12,847 bases of DNA from Promethearchaeota archaeon (GCA_004524535.1 SDNY01000103.1:1-12847); one strand, 5' to 3'. Counted from the stretch's first letter, positions 4,536 through 12,847 are shown. The notes: generated by a model not told the origin, from the sequence alone. Numbers and translations are program-made.

Positions 4536-4810
4536 CTTATATTTAACTTAGTTTAATAGTATTTATTTTTTTTTATTTCAAAGTTATTTAATTTAAAAAA
4601 TTGTTGATAATAAAATTTAATTCTCAACAAGAAAACATACTAAAAGTCTCTTCTCGAAGCACCTCTAAATCGTGAATTTAGCTTAAAAACCATCTTAACC
4701 TAAATAAGTTCAAATTTTTTTATTAATATTTGAATTAAGGTTATTATTTGGAAAAAATTTAATATAAACCAAAATTTATTGAATGGAAAGGATATAATAC
4801 TATAATTGGT

Positions 4811-5965
4811 TTGTTAATCATTACAATTACAAATTTAGACATATTAGCTATTATATACAATACAATATTTTCACTATTTTTATTTCTTCTAGCTAGTCTT
4901 ATGTTTTATATAGCTAAAAGAGGTTATAAGGCAAATAATCACTATGGAGGGAGTTCAACATTAGTGTGTGGAATTTTATTTTTAGTTTTTGGACTTTATA
5001 ATATATTTTTCGGATTTTTTCCTTTTCCTTATATGGGATTCATGATTTGGTGGATCGGGATGATTTTTATCGTTTATATTGGATTTGCTTTAATAATTAA
5101 GAATATAGTAAAAAAATTGGAGAAAGAAAAATTAAATTCTGAGAATTCAAAGAATTCGAGATTAAAAAAATTTGTTATTCTAATGACTAAAGAAAATCCA
5201 TATAAAAAAGAAATTTCTATTAAGATGGAAATAGTTAGAAAAAGTTTTCATCTGGCAGGAATTTTATTTATTTTAGCATACTTTGGATCTTTCTTTCTTT
5301 TTCCTATAACTCGAATAGTTAATGATACAATTATTATATTCATTAAAGAAACTGAATGGTTTTATGGTCTTTTATGGGGTAGCATTCACGATTACCCTTA
5401 TTCTAAAGGGGATTTTCAAGCTGTTGTGGATCTTACTTTGTTTGGTCTAATTGGAGCTTTGGTATTTGCTATAATTTCTGAATTCATTAGAATTTTTTGG
5501 GGTCCCGAATACTCAATATTTAATTTTTTAACAAAAGCTATTCTTAGAGATAAGGAATATAATGCTTTTGGTGCACATATATATTTAATAACGGGGATTA
5601 TCTTTTCTTATATGCTTTATTTTATTGGAGTGGTTCATATATTAATTGTGACAGCTGCGGTGCTCATATCATGCTTTTCAGATGCTCTTGCTGCCTTAAT
5701 CGGACGGAAATGTGGCAATCATAAAGTTAAATGTATCGGTGGCGATATAAAATCAATTGAGGGATTTATAGCAGGAACCGGAAGCGCATTTTTAATTGGT
5801 TTGATTATCCTTGGTCCAATCTACGCATTAATAGCTGCTTTAATTTTTTTCATATTAGATTTTTTTCCAACGATTATTGCAGATAATCTTCTAAACCCAA
5901 TATTAATTACAATAGGCATTTTACTAAGTGTAATATTGTTAGGATTCCCAATTGGATGGTTTTAA
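4811..5965 (+). CDS. CTP-dependent diacylglycerol/polyprenol (dolichol/phytol) kinase family membrane protein
   Basis: RKSFH, LRDKE and SDALAALIGRKCG...KSIEGFIAG...DNLLNP motifs of the Dgk1/Sec59/Vte5 (CTP_transf_1-like) family; many TM helices. Exact start uncertain. Confidence 0.85.
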   Translation: MLIITITNLDILAIIYNTIFSLFLFLLASLMFYIAKRGYKANNHYGGSSTLVCGILFLVFGLYNIFFGFFPFPYMGFMIWWIGMIFIVYIGFALIIKNIVKKLEKEKLNSENSKNSRLKKFVILMTKENPYKKEISIKMEIVRKSFHLAGILFILAYFGSFFLFPITRIVNDTIIIFIKETEWFYGLLWGSIHDYPYSKGDFQAVVDLTLFGLIGALVFAIISEFIRIFWGPEYSIFNFLTKAILRDKEYNAFGAHIYLITGIIFSYMLYFIGVVHILIVTAAVLISCFSDALAALIGRKCGNHKVKCIGGDIKSIEGFIAGTGSAFLIGLIILGPIYALIAALIFFILDFFPTIIADNLLNPILITIGILLSVILLGFPIGWF

Positions 5966-5993
5966 ATATATTATAAATGTTGTTAAAATAATA

Positions 5994-6836
5994 ATGAAAG
6001 AATTAATTGATGAATTAAAAAATATTAAGTTAGCGATTTTTGACTTGGATGGTGTAGTTTACAGAGGAAATACCTTAATCCCGAACGCTGATAAAGTTAT
6101 TCAAGATTTAAAAGATCTATCTATTAAAGTTGTATATAATTCTAATAACTCAACAAATACGAGACTTAAATATGTTGAGAGATTGAAAGGCTTTAACATT
6201 CCAAGTGAACTTTCAGACTTTTATACAAGCGCTTCAATCACTTCGGCTGAGATATCAAAAATAAAAAAAAATGCCAACATTTTTATAATCGGAGAGAGTG
6301 GTTTGCGAGAGGAATTAAAATCATTAGGCCATAATATTATAAAGGATCCCCCTAAATACGAAGATATAGATTTTGTAATAGTAGGGCTTGATAGAAATTT
6401 TAATTATCAAAATTTATCTATTGCTCAAAAATGTATTTTGGAGGGGAACGCACAATTCTATGCAACTAATGCAGATTCGACTTTACCAGTTGCCCGAGGT
6501 TTAAAACCAGGGGCTGGTGTTATGGTCAATGCCGTAGAGACTTGTACAGGGAGAAAACCAGTTAAAATCTTTGGAAAACCAGAACCTTATGGAATAAATC
6601 TTATTTTAAAAGATTTCAATATCCTTCCTAACCAAGTTTGCATTATTGGAGATAGACTTAATACAGATATACTAGCAGGAAACCGCGCAGGAATAATAAC
6701 TATTGCTGTTTTAACAGGGATTACTTCAAATGTAGAAATTGAAGAAATGATAAAAAAGTCAAAAGAGAATCAAATTGAGGATCAAAATCTCCTGCCTAAT
6801 ATTGTGTTAAATACTTTAGAAGAGATTTTCATTTAA
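5994..6836 (+). CDS. HAD-superfamily subfamily IIA hydrolase (NagD-like)
   Basis: Motif I FDLDGVVY, motif II SNNS, GKP and motif IV IGDRLNTDI. ATG 5994 is preferred over TTG 5952, which overlaps the upstream gene. Confidence 0.93.
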   Translation: MKELIDELKNIKLAIFDLDGVVYRGNTLIPNADKVIQDLKDLSIKVVYNSNNSTNTRLKYVERLKGFNIPSELSDFYTSASITSAEISKIKKNANIFIIGESGLREELKSLGHNIIKDPPKYEDIDFVIVGLDRNFNYQNLSIAQKCILEGNAQFYATNADSTLPVARGLKPGAGVMVNAVETCTGRKPVKIFGKPEPYGINLILKDFNILPNQVCIIGDRLNTDILAGNRAGIITIAVLTGITSNVEIEEMIKKSKENQIEDQNLLPNIVLNTLEEIFI

Positions 6837-8067
6837 TTTGTATTTTATTTCTAGTTTCTAAAGATAGTTCATTTTCCTCTGAATTCTCAATCTTAAAATC
6901 CTTGAATATCAAATAGACTAGGATTAGCATTAAAGATATAGGAAATAAACTTATTAAAAGCACATAAAAAATGTAACTTCTAATATCAGATATAAGGTTA
7001 GGTACTATAAAGTTAAATTGACTTTCGAAATAAAAGGGCCCAATTATTTGAAATATGAGTAAAATTAATGTAATTATCAGGATCAAAATTAAATAATTTC
7101 TTTGAAGCGGATTTTTGAGTAAATATAAGCTTATTGGGATAATTATAGGAAACCCTATAAAAAAAATACGGGAATAATTTACTGATAAAAAACCCAGTAG
7201 AAATATAAATGGTAGAAGGATTATTGAATTCTTCAAAAAACGATTTTCGATTTTTTTTAAATATAAATATAAAAAACTAATTAGCCATAAGACTCCAAAT
7301 GTTCGATAAAACATATAGGGATGATAGAAAAGCTTCCTATTAAAAAAGAACAAATTCAATCGTAAGACAAATACAATTCTAGAAAATGAAAAATAGATAT
7401 AATTAAAACCCATAATAAAACGAATTATTAGAAATACACTTATGGGAGGTATTGATATTAACAATGTAGATAGAATACTTGACCTTAGATCTTTTTCTTT
7501 AAGTTCCAAGAAAAAGAATAAAACTAAAGTAATTAAAAGAATTTCCTTATTTGCCGTTCCAATAGTTACACTAATAAGAAACAGTTTTTTATTTGAATCT
7601 AATAATGCATATAAAGCTAATAAAAAGAAGAAGAAGGTTAAGAAATCAACAAAACAGATATTTTGGAGAAGGTAAATATTTATTGGACTTATGATAAATA
7701 AAAATACACCACTCAAACTAATTGGAAAGCTAAATCCGATTTTTCTAAGAAAATAATAAAATAAAAGAGATGTAGCGTAAAATCCAGTTAAATTTACAAT
7801 AATAAATCCTATAAGGGTCTCAACTGGCAAAATTGCAACTAATAAGGGCGTTAATATTCTATACATGAAAATGGGTCTTCTATCTCTAAAATTAGAATCT
7901 ACCATAACATAATATATATGAGCATCACCTTCCGTACTTACCGTTAAGAATGGATGTATAAAAATCACGCCAATTATTATTATAGATAAAATTGTTAGGA
8001 AACACATTAGATTAAGTATAAAAAATTGAAATCTAGGTGAATCTTTGTTTATAATTCTAATGCTCAT
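6829..8067 (-). CDS. Polytopic membrane protein, GT-C-fold glycosyltransferase-like (paralog A)
   Basis: About 10-11 hydrophobic segments, D-xxx-Y in the first loop, YRILTP, NKE and a late-loop Arg (NYSR). This layout resembles PMT/ArnT-type GT-C enzymes; the function is inferred. Confidence 0.6.
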   Translation of the reverse strand: MSIRIINKDSPRFQFFILNLMCFLTILSIIIIGVIFIHPFLTVSTEGDAHIYYVMVDSNFRDRRPIFMYRILTPLLVAILPVETLIGFIIVNLTGFYATSLLFYYFLRKIGFSFPISLSGVFLFIISPINIYLLQNICFVDFLTFFFFLLALYALLDSNKKLFLISVTIGTANKEILLITLVLFFFLELKEKDLRSSILSTLLISIPPISVFLIIRFIMGFNYIYFSFSRIVFVLRLNLFFFNRKLFYHPYMFYRTFGVLWLISFLYLYLKKIENRFLKNSIILLPFIFLLGFLSVNYSRIFFIGFPIIIPISLYLLKNPLQRNYLILILIITLILLIFQIIGPFYFESQFNFIVPNLISDIRSYIFYVLLISLFPISLMLILVYLIFKDFKIENSEENELSLETRNKIQIK

Positions 8068-8068
8068 T

Positions 8069-9304
8069 TTAAGTAATGGAATTTTTATTTCTATTCTCTA
8101 AATTTATTTCATTTTCCTCAGAATTCCTAATCTTTAAATCTTTGAATAGCAAATAGACTAGGATTAACATCAAATATATAGTGAATAAAGATGATAATAG
8201 CACATAATAAACATAACTTTCAAATTCAATTATAATTTTAGGTGTAGATCTGAAAAAATAAAGAGGACCAATTATTTGACTTATGAGTAAAATTAATGTA
8301 ATTATCAGGATCAAAATTAAATATTTTCTTTGAAGCGGATTTTTGAGTAAATATAAGCTTATTGGGATAATTATAGGAAAAGCTATAAAAATAGGACGGG
8401 TATAATCTATTGCAAAAAAACCCTGTAGAAATATGAATGGTAGAAGGATTATTGATTTCTTTAAAAAAGGATTTTCGATTTTTTTTGAATAGAAATATAA
8501 AAAACTAATCAGCCATAAGACTCCAAATGTTAGATAGAACATATACGGATGAAAGAAAATATTTATGTTGATAACATTCAAATGCCTTTGTAGAGTAATT
8601 ATGATTGTAATATGTGAATAATAGACCGCAATAAAATGCATAGTATAACGAATTATTAGGAATACACTTATAGGAGGTATTGATATTAACAATGTAGATA
8701 GAATACTTGACCTTAGATCTTTTTCTTTAAGTTCCAAGTAAAAAAATAAGACTAAAGTAATTAAAAGAGTTTCCTTATTTGCCGTTCCAATAGTTACACT
8801 AATAAGAAACAGTTTTTTATTTGAATCTAATAACGCATATAAAGCTAATAAAAAGAAGAAGAATGTTAAGAATTCAACAAAACAGATATGTTGGAGAAGG
8901 AAAATATTTACTGGACTTATAATAAATAAAAATACACCACTCAAACTAATTGTGAAGCTAAATCCGATTTTTCTAAGAAAATAATAAAATAAAAGGGATG
9001 TAGCGTAAAATCCAGTTAAATTTACAATTATAAATCCTATAAGAGTCTCAACTGGTAGAATTGCAACTAATAAGGGCGTTAATATTCTATACCTGAAAGG
9101 GATCCCTCCTTGCATAAGATTAATTTCTGCCATAAAATAATATTTATGCCCATCGTTTATTGGAACTACCGATAAGAATGGATGTATAAAAATTACGCCA
9201 ATTACTATTATAGATAGAATTGTTAGGAAACACATTAGATTAAGTATAAAAAATTGAAATCTCGGCGAATCCTTGTTTATATTCATTGTTCTAATACGTT
9301 TCAT
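8069..9304 (-). CDS. Polytopic membrane protein, GT-C-fold glycosyltransferase-like (paralog B)
   Basis: Tandem paralog of 6829..8067, separated by 1 nt. Motifs NDGHKY, PFRYRILTP, NKE and DYTR. Confidence 0.6.
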   Translation of the reverse strand: MKRIRTMNINKDSPRFQFFILNLMCFLTILSIIVIGVIFIHPFLSVVPINDGHKYYFMAEINLMQGGIPFRYRILTPLLVAILPVETLIGFIIVNLTGFYATSLLFYYFLRKIGFSFTISLSGVFLFIISPVNIFLLQHICFVEFLTFFFFLLALYALLDSNKKLFLISVTIGTANKETLLITLVLFFYLELKEKDLRSSILSTLLISIPPISVFLIIRYTMHFIAVYYSHITIIITLQRHLNVININIFFHPYMFYLTFGVLWLISFLYFYSKKIENPFLKKSIILLPFIFLQGFFAIDYTRPIFIAFPIIIPISLYLLKNPLQRKYLILILIITLILLISQIIGPLYFFRSTPKIIIEFESYVYYVLLSSLFTIYLMLILVYLLFKDLKIRNSEENEINLENRNKNSIT

Positions 9305-10245
9305 AAAAATTCTAAAATTTGGTTATGTTTAATAATTATAGATTTTTAAAAAAATAAATTTTTTTATAACGATATTATATGTTCGGTACAATCCCTTTTA
9401 TTGATAATGTTGCTGAAAAGAGCTCCAAATATTTTTATTAACGTCACTAACTCATTTATTTCGATAAAAAGATATTTTAGAGCAATCTTTATTAAAAAAG
9501 GGATTTATTGAATGAATAATTATCTTTAGTGAATTATAATATATGTTTTGGCTATATTTATATCAGCTATTAAAACGGATATCTTACTTTTCCTTTTTTT
9601 GTCTCTAAATTTGAATATAAAGCTCTAGATATTCTGTTTGGAAAAAAGAGTCATCAAAAAATCTATTGGGTTTTTTTAATATATCTATTAATCTCAATTT
9701 TTAATAAATTTTATCAAATTAGTCAATAAAGTAAGGAAAAAAAGAGATCTTTAATGCAAAAAATGGGTATGAACCCCCATTATTAAGGAGTTGATATATT
9801 TTATTAATCACTTATTAAACATAGCATATTAATCTGCAAATATTGTTATCTCGTTAATAAAATTCTTTAAATAATGATTTTTCTTATAGCTTAATCTTTA
9901 GAAGATATTTTATGAAAATACTTAATTATTTGCGGATTCGGTTCATTCGTAATTAAATTAAGAGATTTTATAGAATTGGTTAAAAATACTATCGCCGACG
10001 AATATACGAAAATCCTTCTATTTCGTTTTTTTCAACTAATTTTTACTGAAGCCGTAGTTCAATTTTTAGAATCAATTTTAATGATTATATTATTTTAAGA
10101 ATATAGTTTTATTTAAAAGTCGATTATAGCTTTAGAATATTGAAATATTCTTTAATATTTTAAGAAAAAACTTTTTCAGAAAGAACTAGAATTTCTTTAA
10201 TGCTTATATTAATAGTTCAAAAATGTTATTTTAATAGAGTGTATT

Positions 10246-10326
10246 TTAAGTTAGCTCTGATTCATAGATCATCATTCGAGCGATTTTAATAAATATTTCT
10301 TCAATATTTTCACCAATTTTAGAAGA
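10246..10326 (-). pseudogene. 3' relic of a second small GTPase gene
   Basis: Translates to SSKIGENIEEIFIKIARMMIYESELT*, which aligns ungapped with SAKTGENVELIFYKIARNLVKIAGLI* of the adjacent GTPase (13/26 identical, same stop position). An in-frame TAA lies four codons upstream. Confidence 0.8.
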
Positions 10327-10433
10327 TTTATTAATTTAATTCAAATTTTAAAAAAACAATTTTTAATCATAATTTCTGTTAATTTCTTTAGATTAAGATA
10401 ATCCTATTTTTTTTAGAAGTTAAATGAATTTAA

Positions 10434-10976
10434 TTAAATCAATCCTGCTATTTTTACCAAGTTTCGAGCTATTTTATAGAAAATTAATTCCACATTTTCG
10501 CCAGTTTTTGCAGAACATTCAACATAATCTTGGAGGTCGTATTTCTTTGCCATGGCAACCGCATCACTACTAATAACAGATCGTCTATCGTGGAGGTCTA
10601 ACTTACCTCCAACCAGGGTAATAGGAACTTTCTGATCACTATCCTTAGTCCCTTCATAAAAAACTTCAAGCCATTTAGGTAAGTTTTTTAAACTAGAAAC
10701 CCTTGTTATATCGAACATAAAAATACCAATTGAGGCTCCTATAACATAACTTGGTAAAAGGAAACGAAATCGTTCCTCACCAGCAAAATCCCAGATTTGG
10801 AGTGCTATTTTTTTATCCTCTATTTCTAAAGTTTTAAGTAAAAAATCTACACCTAAGGTCATAATTGAATTACTTTTAAAGAGTCCCGTTAAATACCTAT
10901 TGGCAAGACATGTTTTTCCTACGCCACCATCTCCAAATAAACACACCTTAAATATAGCATCTTGCACAAGACTCAC
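10434..10976 (-). CDS. Rab-like small GTPase (Ras superfamily)
   Basis: G1 GDGGVGKT, G2 TLGVDF, G3 WDFAGEERF, G4 GGKLD, G5 SAK. No C-terminal cysteine prenylation motif. Confidence 0.95.
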   Translation of the reverse strand: MSLVQDAIFKVCLFGDGGVGKTCLANRYLTGLFKSNSIMTLGVDFLLKTLEIEDKKIALQIWDFAGEERFRFLLPSYVIGASIGIFMFDITRVSSLKNLPKWLEVFYEGTKDSDQKVPITLVGGKLDLHDRRSVISSDAVAMAKKYDLQDYVECSAKTGENVELIFYKIARNLVKIAGLI

Positions 10977-11119
10977 CCGTAAATCTCATCTTATTTAAAT
11001 AAATAATTAATATACAAATTGTATTGTTCTTTTTTAAATTTTTATTTATGAAACATTGATTTTAATTCATTCCTCAAAAAGATAATAAAAATAATACTAA
11101 AAAGTTTAATCGTTTATAA

Positions 11120-12544
11120 TTAAATTTCCTTATTTTTATAGAAATCAGAGTAGATTTTTAAGAAATAATAATTTGACAACCTTGTATTTATAATTGAATC
11201 TATTTGAATAAATTCATTAGGGGCGTGAGCGAATCCACCAATGCCCAGACCTCCACTGATAAAATTTAATCCCAAAATTTTTTTTATTTCGCTTAGTGGA
11301 GCAGCATCAGCGCTTATTGGCCATAATTCAGTAGAAACTCCTAAAACATCTGCACTTTTTATCAGACTTTTAACTAACGCAAAATCTTTTTTGACTCGAG
11401 ATCCTTCATACCCCGCATTCCTAATTAAATCAATTTTGGATTTAGTACCTTTAGAAAAATTTTCAACTTTTTCTTTAATTTCTTTGAAAATTTGTTCTAC
11501 AGAAATATTATGTGCAAATCTAATGTCTATTTTGCATATTGCTTCATTTGGGACATAATTTTTCGTTCCTTCTTCTAAATAGCCGGATTTTAATGTAGAA
11601 ATATTAAAAGTTGGATTAAATAAGTAATTGGTAAATGTCAATTTAGGATCGCTTTCAATTGTTTGCACTATTCCAGCTTTCTTTATTATTTTATTTATAT
11701 TGAATTTATTGATTAAAACGTCGATAAGTGTTTGTTCTTCTTCTGAAAGCACGTAAGGTTCTTTCAAGCAATCAATATGAAACTCATTATTAGAATAGAT
11801 GGTATTAATTAAAGAGATCAAATCAACCGCAGGATTTGGGATCATTGCACTAAATGCTGAGTGTGGCTCTTTATTTTCTGATGAAACTTTTATGGTTAAA
11901 GATATAATTCCCTTATAACCTAACTTTAAAACTGAAATTCCGTTAAGATCTTGCTTTGTTGATGGATAATAGGCGCCAATACAATTGTTAAAAATCTTAT
12001 TGTTACGTTCATTTTCAAGAAATTTCAATAAAGTTGGCGAACCTTTCTCCTCCTCACCGTCGAATAGAAGCACCAATGATATCGGTAATTCATTCTTCTC
12101 TTTCAATAATTTTATAACACTTAAGAAGCATAATAAAGGGGTTTTTGAATTATAAGCACCTCTAGCGATTATACATTTACCTAAAGTATTTAATGGTGGG
12201 GAAAGAATTCTTATTTCTGAACCAAAAGGGTCACATATCCATTGTTCTTTTTTATTTATTGGTTGAGTATCATACATCATATAAACAAGCAATTTTTTTT
12301 TTAATTTACCTTCAACTTTCACAATAATTAAAGGGTTAATTTCACCAGAACTTTCAATGATCTCCTTAGAAAAGCTTGAAATATAAGAGATTAAAAATTC
12401 TTTTGCTTTTTTAATGCCTTTTTCATTTAGAGTATTACTAGGGATCTTCAAAAAGGGAATTAGTTCACTTTTAATAAATTCATCATTGCTTTCCTTTAAG
12501 AGTTTTTCAATTATTGGGATTTCATTCTCATTCTCATTTTTCAT
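11120..12544 (-). CDS. M20/M25/M40 family metallo-hydrolase (ArgE/DapE/Dug1-like) with atypical metal site
   Basis: YDTQP...W..DPF, ARGA, DGEEEKGS, LGYKG, HS, PTFNI, DIRF and AHAPNE motifs. Confidence 0.9.
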   Translation of the reverse strand: MKNENENEIPIIEKLLKESNDEFIKSELIPFLKIPSNTLNEKGIKKAKEFLISYISSFSKEIIESSGEINPLIIVKVEGKLKKKLLVYMMYDTQPINKKEQWICDPFGSEIRILSPPLNTLGKCIIARGAYNSKTPLLCFLSVIKLLKEKNELPISLVLLFDGEEEKGSPTLLKFLENERNNKIFNNCIGAYYPSTKQDLNGISVLKLGYKGIISLTIKVSSENKEPHSAFSAMIPNPAVDLISLINTIYSNNEFHIDCLKEPYVLSEEEQTLIDVLINKFNINKIIKKAGIVQTIESDPKLTFTNYLFNPTFNISTLKSGYLEEGTKNYVPNEAICKIDIRFAHNISVEQIFKEIKEKVENFSKGTKSKIDLIRNAGYEGSRVKKDFALVKSLIKSADVLGVSTELWPISADAAPLSEIKKILGLNFISGGLGIGGFAHAPNEFIQIDSIINTRLSNYYFLKIYSDFYKNKEI

Positions 12545-12611
12545 ATATAATAAAATAGTTAAATTAATAATTAATTTAATTAATCATTGGAATTTGAAGC
12601 AATCAATTATA

Positions 12612-12847
12612 ATGAGTAAATACTCTTCGTCATATTCTATGAAATTCGAAGCTATAAACTTAATATTAGATGAAATGAAAGAAATAGGCAAGTTTAAGGG
12701 AATTTTATTTTCTAAGCGTGATGGAGGATTAATTGCTGAAAATATTGGTAAAGATATTGATTATAATGAGTTTGCGGCGATGTGTGCTTCTGTTTTTGAA
12801 AGTGCTGAAGGATTAGGAAAGACCTTTGGAGTTAATAAAATTGGCAA
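12612..12847 (+). CDS. Roadblock/LC7 domain protein (3'-truncated by the window edge; not in the ORF track)
   Basis: MSKYSSSYSMKFEAINLILDEMKEIGKFKGILFSKRDGGLIAENIGKDIDYNEFAAMCASVFESAEGLGKTFG... shows the GxxxxxxDGxxIA and AAMxAS Roadblock motifs. The frame is open to the window end. Confidence 0.85.
   Translation, partial: MSKYSSSYSMKFEAINLILDEMKEIGKFKGILFSKRDGGLIAENIGKDIDYNEFAAMCASVFESAEGLGKTFGVNKIG

Follow-up and report, generated by a model that had tools for sequence, protein, structure and literature searches.

A tandem pair of predicted GT-C-fold glycosyltransferase genes in a Promethearchaeota archaeon combines paralogue-specific loops with a core homogenised by gene conversion

Introduction

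GT-C glycosyltransferases are polytopic membrane proteins with 7-13 (or 12/14) transmembrane (TM) helices, in which TM1 is followed by a loop or domain on the extracytoplasmic side (PMC11127046 and PMC6801728, both in excerpt). The available part of PMC6801728 describes four conserved luminal patterns for these enzymes: an acidic motif of DxD, ExD or DD type close behind TM1 in the first outer loop, a D/E/R pattern in outer loop 2, a K/R in the short TM5-TM6 outer turn, and R/K-x(4-14)-P in an outer loop of the C-terminal helix cluster. It assigns ALG3 and PIGM 12 TM helices and a C-terminus in the cytoplasm. Among serotype-converting Gtr-type GT-C enzymes and bacterial three-component systems for outer-face glycosylation, related enzymes that attach a sugar at different sites of a surface glycan produce different surface types (PMC11127046, in excerpt). 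A different kind of precedent is offered by mtrA-1 and mtrA-2, tandem archaeal paralogues with partial and long-lasting gene conversion, in which the unconverted part is function-specific (PMC4632066, in excerpt).

Here we compare with these systems a tandem gene pair from a Promethearchaeota archaeon (GCA_004524535.1). The whole stretch of DNA analysed, hereafter the window, is 12,847 nt long (SDNY01000103.1:1-12847) and contains the following two genes.

Copy A, downstream gene: 6829-8067, minus strand; ORF of 412 aa, predicted 12-TM GT-C-fold glycosyltransferase
Copy B, upstream gene: 8069-9304, minus strand; ORF of 411 aa, predicted 12-TM GT-C-fold glycosyltransferase

Both ORFs are intact and co-oriented, with the start codon of A 1 nt past the stop codon of B, and they are probably co-transcribed. 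They are tandem paralogues, probably from an old duplication in an archaeal family of predicted GT-C fold without a characterised function. The predicted proteins resemble the GT-C(A) enzymes (ArnT, PimE, PIG-M/GPI-MT-I, ALG3/9/12, Pmt and STT3/AglB/PglB) in fold (TMq 0.43-0.54), in a predicted inside N-terminus and large first outer loop (EL1) with an invariant Asp, in a conserved Lys/Arg in the short outer turn between TM5 and TM6, in R-x6-P in the C-terminal helix cluster and, like ALG3 and PIGM, in 12 predicted TM helices with the C-terminus inside. They differ in that neither has a significant match to the Pfam families of those enzymes and in that B has a single EL1 acid, not a DxD-like pair. 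The archaeal AglS-type Dol-P-mannose transferase is presumably a further analogue. Gtr-type enzymes may serve as a model for A versus B; however, no other glycosylation gene, including a partner GT2 polyprenol-phosphate glycosyltransferase or flippase, was found in the window, and the pair is chromosomal and stable, not phage-borne. As in mtrA, one part of the gene is homogenised and another kept distinct, but the unconverted parts of A and B are short loops interleaved with the core instead of a separate domain, and the time depth shown is that of strains only. Remote similarity over the N-terminal half extends to NF046093 (the AZOBR_p60025 family; 10/19 family members) and to EpsG (6/19); AZOBR_p60025 is not mentioned in the literature searched.

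Results

The proteins encoded by A and B are 77% identical, with 92 differences over 407 aligned residues, and the clustering of these differences (variance of 20-residue windows) was matched by 0 of 10,000 permutations. A first-pass annotation of this DNA had described tandem membrane paralogues diverging in four patches. The non-random clustering bears this out; the patch coordinates given there match our re-derived boundaries to within a few codons, the quoted peptides are correct, and the D-xxx-Y motif and late Arg said to survive inside the patches are present in both copies, as Asp48...Tyr52 (D-x-x-x-Y) and Arg300.

VR1: A 7864-7944, B 9092-9172, minus strand; EL1, first predicted outer loop, after TM1
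VR2: A 7303-7419, B 8531-8647, minus strand; EL4, long predicted outer loop after TM7
VR3: A 7153-7197, B 8381-8425, minus strand; EL5, predicted outer turn between TM9 and TM10
VR4: A 6967-7035, B 8207-8263, minus strand; EL6, last predicted outer loop, with a 4-codon indel
TM12 and charged cytoplasmic tail: A 6832-6966, B 8072-8206, minus strand; fifth divergent part

The first few codons of A and B are divergent as well; these and the C-terminal 45 codons were absent from the earlier list of four. Across the scaffold the copies differ at 37 of 771 nt, with a dN/dS of 0.17. Scaffold dS is 0.14, whereas the patches reach 0.39 (Fisher p=0.005), and the longest run shared without a mismatch by A and B is 66 nt. 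The near-identity of the scaffold at silent sites described earlier holds only relative to the patches. The patches share ~65% nucleotide identity. A dN/dS analysis, which the first-pass annotation had proposed, gave 1.3 for the patches, with a non-significant excess over 1 (p=0.37), and a McDonald-Kreitman-like contrast gave p=0.053.

A 17-kb syntenic locus (L001) of the Promethearchaeota MAG LW60_4, with ~94.6% nucleotide identity to the window, carries an equivalent pair in the same context, A2 (8001-9239) and B2 (6764-7999). The recurrence of the pair in an independent MAG excludes that the two copies are an assembly chimera. Patch dN is ~0.49 between paralogues versus 0.032 for A-A2 (scaffold 0.020) and 0.053 for B-B2 (scaffold 0.027). 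Being nearly unchanged between orthologues, the patches are stable and paralogue-specific. The terms "hypervariable" and "being diversified" are not borne out, since from one genome to the other these segments are conserved almost to the same degree as the scaffold.

The patches differ in how they behave in the wider family. VR1, which in A carries the family-invariant Asp48, has a dN of 0.59 for A-B, 0.047 for A-A2 and 0.016 for B-B2. VR3 holds Arg300 of the R-x6-P motif, a residue present in both window copies, both L001 copies and P0002 (a third close relative), at an A-B dN of 0.37. The loops that contain these two patches, EL1 and EL5, are among the best-conserved parts in sister clades (identity 0.71 and 0.49 for EL1, 0.77 and 0.68 for EL5) and the least conserved among A, B and P0002 (only 0.37 and 0.36, respectively); VR1 and VR3 are therefore not relaxed loops. 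VR2, in which the AF2 model of A has two short helices (residues 228-244 and 248-257), has an A-B dN of 0.445 and dS of 0.60 and is variable in every family clade (identity 0.38-0.46). VR4 (dN 0.57 for A-B, 0.0 for A-A2, 0.021 for B-B2) is likewise variable across the family, with indels. In TM12 and the tail (last 45 codons), A and B differ at 28/135 nt (dS 0.40, dN 0.21) and the orthologues by 1 and 3 nt.

Gene conversion is directly visible in one block of the scaffold.

Scaffold block C2: A 7420-7863, B 8648-9091, minus strand; end of EL1 through TM2-TM7, conversion tract

Over these 444 nt, A and B differ at 20 positions (dS 0.142) and A2 and B2 at 5 (dS 0.03). In L001, positions 7025-7429 and 8253-8657 (TM2-TM7) are identical over 405 nt, a tract in which A and B have 19/405 mismatches in the window. 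Orthologues differ at 18-19/444 nt of C2 (~4%; dS 0.095-0.119). The 131 informative sites comprise 125 of orthology type and 6 of concerted type; C2 contains all 6 of the latter and 0/125 of the former (p=1.6e-10), and in the C2 tree A2 and B2 form a clade (support 97/92). Over a delimited tract, paralogues within a genome are thus closer than orthologues and trees are incongruent, as in concerted evolution. In C2 the A-B dS matches that seen between strains for the flanking genes (0.09-0.17, one 0.32), the unconverted parts have an A-B dS of 0.25-0.60, and blocks C1 and C3 retain paralogue-specific silent differences. The scaffold has been homogenised by gene conversion in C2, one of two origins that the first-pass annotation had offered for its similarity. 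DNA of the pair comes from two genomes only, so that conversion can be dated and its direction read no more than coarsely.

Structure prediction supports the assignment of A and B to the GT-C fold, which the first-pass annotation had made. The AF2 models (A, pLDDT 85.7 and pTM 0.86; B, 85.5 and 0.87) have the same helix order and contain 12 long hydrophobic helices; the loop that follows TM1 is 47 residues long and includes two short helices. This is in keeping with the helix count and post-TM1 outer loop of GT-C enzymes, and neither model has an extra soluble outer domain. Each of the best 30 ranks of a Foldseek search of the PDB is a GT-C enzyme or a subunit with that fold; ArnT (5ezm, E 5.6e-3, TMq 0.54), PIGU, STT3, AglB, ALG9, PglB, PimE, PIG-M and GPI-MT-I (TM 0.51/0.51) are among the matches, and none reaches E <= 0.001. 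Structure neighbours in the Atlas are DUF2079, GT87, PMT_2, PMT, ALG10, PIG-V and YfhO, with TM 0.60-0.76 to the DUF2079, PMT_2, GT87 and YfhO clusters. Scans of A and B against Pfam and NCBIfam and a sequence search of the PDB gave no match, and the family has no Pfam model.

We read the topology from the model helices and the positive-inside rule, with both ends placed in the cytoplasm. In the 12-TM model, K+R density is 0.216 in inner and 0.054 in outer loops (19 homologues). Each of the four patches lies in a predicted outer loop (EL1, EL4, EL5 and EL6), consistent with the earlier suggestion of an outward face. A-B differences amount to 57/109 in outer loops, 13/60 in inner loops and 27/243 in TM segments (outer versus inner, p=1.5e-4). 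Divergence extends beyond the outer face to the cytoplasmic tail (8/24 residues) and the N-terminus.

An alignment of 19 family sequences was compared with the four GT-C patterns (PMC6801728, in excerpt). Those of EL2, EL3 and R-x6-P show little or no variation: at least 90% of the sequences have D141 in EL2, N173 and E175 in the short TM5/6 outer turn (EL3) are invariant with K or R at position 174 in 19/19, and R300 and P307 are invariant in 19/19. The EL1 Asp (D48 in A) is found in all aligned sequences that span the loop. At this site the residues of a sister clade are S-D-D; within the pair only A has two acids (E46-G-D48), and B (N-D-G), like P0002 (G-D-G), has the single invariant Asp.

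The window also contains two genes on the opposite strand.

Polytopic membrane ORF: 4811-5965, plus strand; possibly, as a tentative lead, polyprenol/dolichol-kinase-like (CTP_transf_1 type)
HAD-IIA phosphatase: 5952-6836, plus strand; Pfam Hydrolase_6, 5.4e-23

The membrane ORF has no match in Pfam or NCBIfam; the Atlas clusters nearest to it are a "putative phosphatidate cytidylyltransferase" cluster (score 0.97; CTP_transf_1 in 18% of members) and DOLK (0.83). The phosphatase gene (TIGR01460 HAD-SF-IIA, 131.6 bits, cut-off 100.15) runs convergently towards A and extends 8 nt into its 3' end. Homologues of A and B adjoin AglB/STT3 in 3/7 other loci (L002, L005 and, as a fragment, L007), which also carry GT2 and GT4 genes. 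This neighbourhood and the possibly kinase-like ORF offer limited, indirect hints of a sugar donor linked to a lipid phosphate.

Discussion

These observations are probably best explained by an old duplication, divergence of specificity in the outer loops and recurrent conversion that homogenised the core. The active site would be built from outer-face loops, with Asp48 in EL1, Asp141 in EL2, Asn173-Lys174-Glu175 in EL3 and Arg300...Pro307 in EL5 as its predicted residues. If A and B act as every characterised GT-C enzyme does, they would take the sugar from a polyprenol (dolichol)-phosphate-linked donor and, outside the cell, pass it to an acceptor that may be a glycan, a protein or a lipid. 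Recurrent conversion between the direct repeats would keep the membrane core alike, TM2-TM7 above all, with tracts ending where the diverged loops begin. Apart from EL1, EL4, EL5, EL6 and the C-terminal tail, A and B hardly differ. Since the loop differences are stable between strains, A and B most likely differ in specificity, be it for donor, acceptor or linkage, as a result of sub- or neo-functionalisation.

An alternative history has a young duplication, close to the strain split, after which patches, tail and N-terminus were imported piecemeal by recombination with divergent alleles or paralogues of other lineages; the pair would then be a genuine mosaic, or the outcome of cassette exchange, instead of having a homogenised scaffold. 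The strain-level dS of C2 (0.142) is as expected from such a history, and P0002 is a mosaic, resembling B in the N-terminus and VR1 (9 versus 2 diagnostic residues) and A in VR2, VR4 and the end of the tail (28 versus 4; Fisher p=5.6e-5 for the split). Segment trees agree, placing P0002 with A over residues 217-290 (84/85) and 291-412 (88/99) and outside the A clade over residues 1-68 (91/89). However, P0002 fits a simple B-5'/A-3' hybrid with one crossover in C2, or could be a metagenome assembly chimera. At least five precise imports would be needed, all before the strain split, where one or two conversion tracts suffice; the unconverted parts have similarly old dS values, as a single old duplication predicts; and conversion of the scaffold is directly visible in L001. 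We consider a young duplication unlikely.

Pmt1-Pmt2 and EmbA-EmbB are paralogous GT-C pairs that work as heterodimers. Both (6p25 and 7bvc) are among the Foldseek matches, and genes A and B are separated by a single nucleotide. By analogy, A and B might form an obligate heterodimer in which the loop differences reflect a division of labour, an arrangement that would be compatible with old duplication and core conversion. It appears improbable given the 8 loci found, at which homologues outside this lineage are single-copy; members of the family can therefore, as a rule, do without a second paralogue.

A and B could also be Wzy/EpsG-like polymerases acting on diphosphate-linked oligosaccharides and not GT-C(A) single-sugar transferases. 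Weak Pfam EpsG matches occur in 6/19 family members at E <= 10 (best 0.001), a distant relative matches EpsG at 6.3e-7 (29.3 bits versus a cut-off of 30.1), and the NCBIfam model NF046093, "cell surface glycopolymer formation protein", matches 10/19 members (best 2.3e-10), although single-member scores of 27-47 bits are far under its 150-bit cut-off. A and B themselves match neither model. Among the Foldseek matches listed there is no polymerase, ligase or SEDS protein, ArnT, STT3, ALG9, PimE and PIG-M taking the lead, and the four-motif layout largely fits, with EL2, EL3 and R-x6-P present and EL1 in part (PMC6801728, in excerpt). This makes a polymerase identity quite unlikely.

A simpler view dispenses with conversion: strong purifying selection keeps the scaffold alike, and the patches are relaxed loops. 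The low scaffold dN/dS, the variability of VR2 and VR4 in all family clades and the paralogue-specific silent differences kept in C1 and C3 speak for it, and for C1 and C3 purifying selection is a fair description. For C2 it is refuted by L001, where orthologue dS is normal and yet the paralogues are identical over 405 nt. Concerted-type sites and the A2/B2 clade are restricted to C2, and VR1 and VR3 are conserved in sister clades. As an account of the whole pair, purifying selection without conversion is very improbable.

The first-pass annotation had raised a cassette-like system and proposed a search for the adenine-biased changes of a DGR. Adenine bias was absent from the A-B mismatches (adenine at 24/106 in A and 36/106 in B), and all 12 substitution types are present. 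No reverse transcriptase was found among 12 ORFs scanned in the window, and no further gene copies, fragments, cassettes or template repeat were found by tblastn (E < 0.3) in the window and the 17-kb L001. A DGR target was rejected for lack of a reverse transcriptase, template repeat and adenine bias, and cassette antigenic or phase variation for lack of silent donors and because patch dN between strains is only 0.03-0.05. Active diversification of the surface loops within the population, by either route, is scarcely credible: differences are concentrated in outer loops and the P0002 mosaic means that loop combinations can differ among relatives, but the patches are almost unchanged between genomes ~5% apart in DNA and their ~65% nucleotide identity is far below that of a template-variable repeat pair.

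In conclusion, the pair follows an ordinary pattern of duplicated enzymes and is not an active variation system. A more speculative, and on balance doubtful, extension is that tandem GT-C genes in Asgard archaea act as a modular kit, in which crossovers in the core reshuffle loop sets between paralogues. If so, conversion would keep the core recombination-proficient, P0002 would be a natural B-5'/A-3' hybrid, and new surface-glycan types could arise across the population, possibly under pressure from recognition by viruses or partners.

Divergence and topology of the two paralogues

The two predicted GT-C-fold glycosyltransferase paralogues, A and B, lie in tandem in an AT-rich window (GC 0.20–0.37) whose gene content includes Roadblock/LC7, Ras-like GTPase and PCNA-like genes. 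No RNA gene was detected anywhere in the window by Rfam or tRNA scanning. From 4709 to 12847, the window corresponds to a contig of the Promethearchaeota MAG LW60_4 (locus L001) with about 94–95% nucleotide identity and the same gene order. The features concerned are:

303–1484, + strand: PCNA-like protein, 393 aa
4100–4471, − strand: Roadblock/LC7-domain ORF
4811–5965, + strand: polytopic membrane ORF, 384 aa, convergent neighbour of A, no Pfam or NCBIfam match
5952–6836, + strand: HAD-IIA phosphatase gene, convergent neighbour of A
6829–8067, − strand: A, ORF of 412 aa, after B
8069–9304, − strand: B, ORF of 411 aa, first of the co-oriented pair
10434–10976, − strand: Ras-like GTPase gene
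12414–12845, + strand: Roadblock/LC7-domain ORF
L001 6764–7999: B2, orthologue of B
L001 8001–9239: A2, orthologue of A

The stop codon of B is followed, after a single nucleotide, by the start of A. P0001 (392 aa), the database version of A, begins at Met21, 20 codons later than the ORF; the longer ORF, with its start at 8067, is probably the real one because these codons (8007–8067) are conserved with B and carry silent changes only.

A and B are 77% identical as proteins, and their differences are gathered in four patches (VR1–VR4) separated by conserved scaffold blocks (C1–C3). The patches lie essentially where the first-pass annotation had placed them, and such clustering was reached by none of 10,000 permutations; the peptides quoted there, the D-x-x-x-Y motif and the late Arg are all correct. 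The scaffold had further been described as near-identical even at silent sites. It does diverge less at these sites than the patches do (p = 0.005; see table), but it is not literally identical. Two more divergent parts, absent from the earlier list, are a few codons at the very start of the genes and the 45 codons at their end.

Divergence between A and B (Nei–Gojobori estimates)
Scaffold: 37/771 nt differ; dS 0.14; dN 0.025
Four patches: 106/303 nt differ; dS 0.39; dN 0.49

A topology built from model helices and hydropathy has 12 TM segments with the N and C ends inside. Among 19 homologues, the loops assigned to the inside have a K+R density of 0.216 and the outer loops (EL) one of 0.054, so that the model agrees with the positive-inside rule and the GT-C layout. 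VR1 falls in EL1, VR2 in the long loop after TM7 (EL4), VR3 in the TM9/10 turn containing R300 (EL5) and VR4 in the last outer loop (EL6), which places all four patches on the predicted outer face, as the first pass had supposed. A and B differ at 57/109 positions in outer loops and 13/60 in inner loops (p = 1.5e-4), and at 27/243 in TM segments. Divergence is not exclusive to the outer face, since the cytoplasmic tail differs at 8 of its 24 residues.

Concerted evolution of the scaffold

Comparison with L001 identifies gene conversion between the paralogues as the process that homogenises block C2 (A 7420–7863 / B 8648–9091; TM2–TM7). In L001, positions 7025–7429 and 8253–8657 are identical over 405 nt (TM2–TM7), in a tract that stops no more than two codons from where VR2 begins; its window counterpart has 19/405 mismatches between A and B. 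All six concerted-type sites (A = B, A2 = B2) lie in C2, as opposed to 0/125 orthology-type sites (A = A2, B = B2; p = 1.6e-10). The C2 protein tree places A2 and B2 together (support 97/92), whereas the trees of other segments group orthologues. Within the window, A–B dS in C2 (0.142) is the same as the flanking genes show between strains (0.09–0.17; one gene 0.32), and the unconverted parts of A and B have a dS of 0.25–0.60. Conversion of the scaffold, as proposed in the first pass, is thus borne out by the identical tract, the concerted sites and the A2–B2 clade, all of them in C2.

Between orthologues, which differ at 18–19 of 444 nt in C2, silent change in this block is as fast as normal, so that constraint cannot explain its likeness between the paralogues. 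C1 and C3 retain paralogue-specific silent differences, and purifying selection is the better explanation of their likeness. That the pair is an assembly chimera of strain variants is dismissed by the presence of the same pair in a second assembly, L001. A and B are a clean but unsurprising example of segmental concerted evolution, and evolve in a manner like that of other partially converted archaeal tandem paralogues (PMC4632066). A literature search found no study joining gene conversion, tandem paralogues, archaea and glycosyltransferase.

Stable patches and a possible hybrid

The patches had been taken for a hypervariable, cassette-like system, a reading that comparison of orthologues does not support. 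Patch dN is 0.032 for A–A2 and 0.053 for B–B2 (scaffold dN 0.020 and 0.027), and about 0.49 between paralogues. Since the patches are nearly unchanged in orthologues and all 125 orthology-type sites lie outside C2, mostly in patches and tail, the patches are old, stable and paralogue-specific, not hypervariable. There is no DGR signature, no reverse transcriptase among the 12 window ORFs scanned and no spare cassette in the window or L001. The pair is not a new variation mechanism.

In VR2 and VR4, identity is low in every family clade (0.38–0.46 and 0.12–0.41, respectively). VR1 and VR3, where the putative catalytic Asp and Arg reside, rank with the most conserved segments of the sister clades (identity 0.71/0.49 and 0.77/0.68) and are the least conserved ones among A, B and a third close relative, P0002 (0.37 and 0.36). 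This reversal suggests that specificity changed once the gene had been duplicated, rather than that the loops merely relaxed. Tests for positive selection in the patches were not significant (dN/dS 1.3, p = 0.37; McDonald–Kreitman-like test, p = 0.053).

P0002 is encoded on a 4.4-kb metagenome contig and was compared at the protein level. Its N-terminus and VR1 are B-like (9 vs 2 diagnostic residues), and its VR2, VR4 and tail end are A-like (28 vs 4; Fisher p = 5.6e-5 for the split, with moderate tree support). This is exactly the hybrid (5´-B/3´-A) expected of a single crossover within the core that the two genes share, as B lies upstream of A. The same pattern would arise if metagenome assembly had joined two copies across this near-identical core into a chimera.

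A predicted GT-C family without a Pfam model

Pfam and NCBIfam gave nothing usable for A or B, and the sole match in a PDB sequence-profile search was at chance level (E 1.9). A word-indexed search returned only A, B and P0002 (78%), with the next relatives at 49% or less. The family is nonetheless sizeable, since an exhaustive HMMER search gave 612 cluster representatives at E <= 0.001. AF2 models of A and B, from a 19-sequence alignment, are both confident and alike in helix order. In Foldseek searches against the PDB, ranks 1–30 are all GT-C proteins (ArnT, PIGU, STT3, AglB, ALG9, PglB, PimE, GPI-MT-I, Pmt), with TM-scores of 0.43–0.54 and none with E < 0.001; in the Atlas, too, the nearest families are of the GT-C kind, whether features or structures are compared. 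Four conserved luminal patterns are described for GT-C enzymes (PMC6801728), and all four positions are present in the family alignment in the expected order (see table), although the acidic pair of EL1 is not found in all members: B and P0002 have one acid only.

Luminal GT-C patterns and corresponding residues
EL1, acidic residue soon after TM1: D48
EL2, acid in outer loop 2: D141
EL3, K/R in the short TM5/6 turn: N173-K174-E175
R-x(4-14)-P, close to the cluster of C-terminal helices: R300-x6-P307

Among the relatives, remote similarity to EpsG (6/19) and NCBIfam NF046093 (10/19) is below the cut-off wherever a score is shown; neither matches A or B, and a literature search found no paper on AZOBR_p60025, the namesake of NF046093. 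On the modelled fold, A and B are predicted members of an uncharacterised GT-C family without a Pfam model.

Genomic context

Of eight homologue loci, only L001 has two copies; the homologue is single-copy in the other seven. Its neighbour is AglB/STT3 at L002 and L005 and a fragment of STT3 at L007. GT2, GT4, PMT_2 and sugar-nucleotide genes lie near the homologues at AglB/STT3 loci. In methanogens, members of the family sit beside AglB. At L007 (7934–8893, Methanobacteriaceae MAG), tblastn matches the homologue only as a series of separate segments, and the STT3 ORF beside it is a fragment of 123 aa; both may be pseudogenes broken by frameshifts, or the sequence may contain errors.

The window holds no glycosylation gene other than A and B, a dispersed arrangement like that of Promethearchaeum syntrophicum, where a glycoproteomic study describes agl genes as dispersed, not clustered near aglB (PMC11284389). 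The HAD-IIA gene overlaps the 3´ end of A by 8 nt and the membrane ORF by 14 nt. The nearest Atlas clusters to this ORF (4811–5965) are Promethearchaeota phosphatidate cytidylyltransferase-like, with dolichol kinase weaker (0.83); from Atlas features alone, dolichol kinase is a lead, and if the ORF does encode a polyprenol kinase, A and B might obtain their lipid carrier from it.

Upstream of B, 1.1 kb (9305–10433) is very AT-rich (GC about 0.20–0.23), contains no ORF as long as 60 aa, matches nothing in the Rfam and tRNA scans, and aligns to L001 inside a block of about 94.6% identity. It presumably holds the promoter of the B–A unit. The window has one Ras-like GTPase gene and L001 two in tandem (4650–5183, 5292–5822), and about 455 nt between the two aligned blocks of L001 is absent from the window. 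The window protein is not a hybrid of the two L001 paralogues: it aligns as the orthologue of the first (85% identity, vs 56% to the second). Between-strain dS of the shared GTPase (0.32) is the highest of the flanking genes. At L006 (928–3508; labelled only 'uncultured archaeon') and L008 (7857–10289; Helarchaeota Asgard MAG), the gene directly after the GT-C homologue encodes a Ras-family protein of 370–390 aa, and an MFS transporter is close by; in the window, the Ras-like gene is 1.1 kb upstream of B. This adjacency may be coincidental, in genomes so rich in GTPases, or may mark a real association.

Roadblock/LC7 genes beside small GTPases are typical Asgard signature genes. One of the two Roadblock/LC7 ORFs is complete; the other runs off the window end and gives a weak match, below the cut-off (E 2.7e-4). 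In the PCNA-like protein, the PCNA N and C domains begin only near residue 112, and the roughly 110 residues that extend its N-terminus match no family.

By analogy with bacterial three-component systems (PMC11127046), A and B may work by GT-C glycosylation at the outer face.

In conclusion, A and B are uncharacterised additions to known kinds. Surface glycobiology of Asgard archaea (Promethearchaeota) is, to our knowledge, almost unexplored, and the pair points to an uncharacterised GT-C family that has no Pfam model. It also offers a natural experiment, in which a near-identical membrane core carries differing outer loops, including the normally conserved catalytic EL1 and EL5, and these loops are thus obvious candidates for determining specificity.
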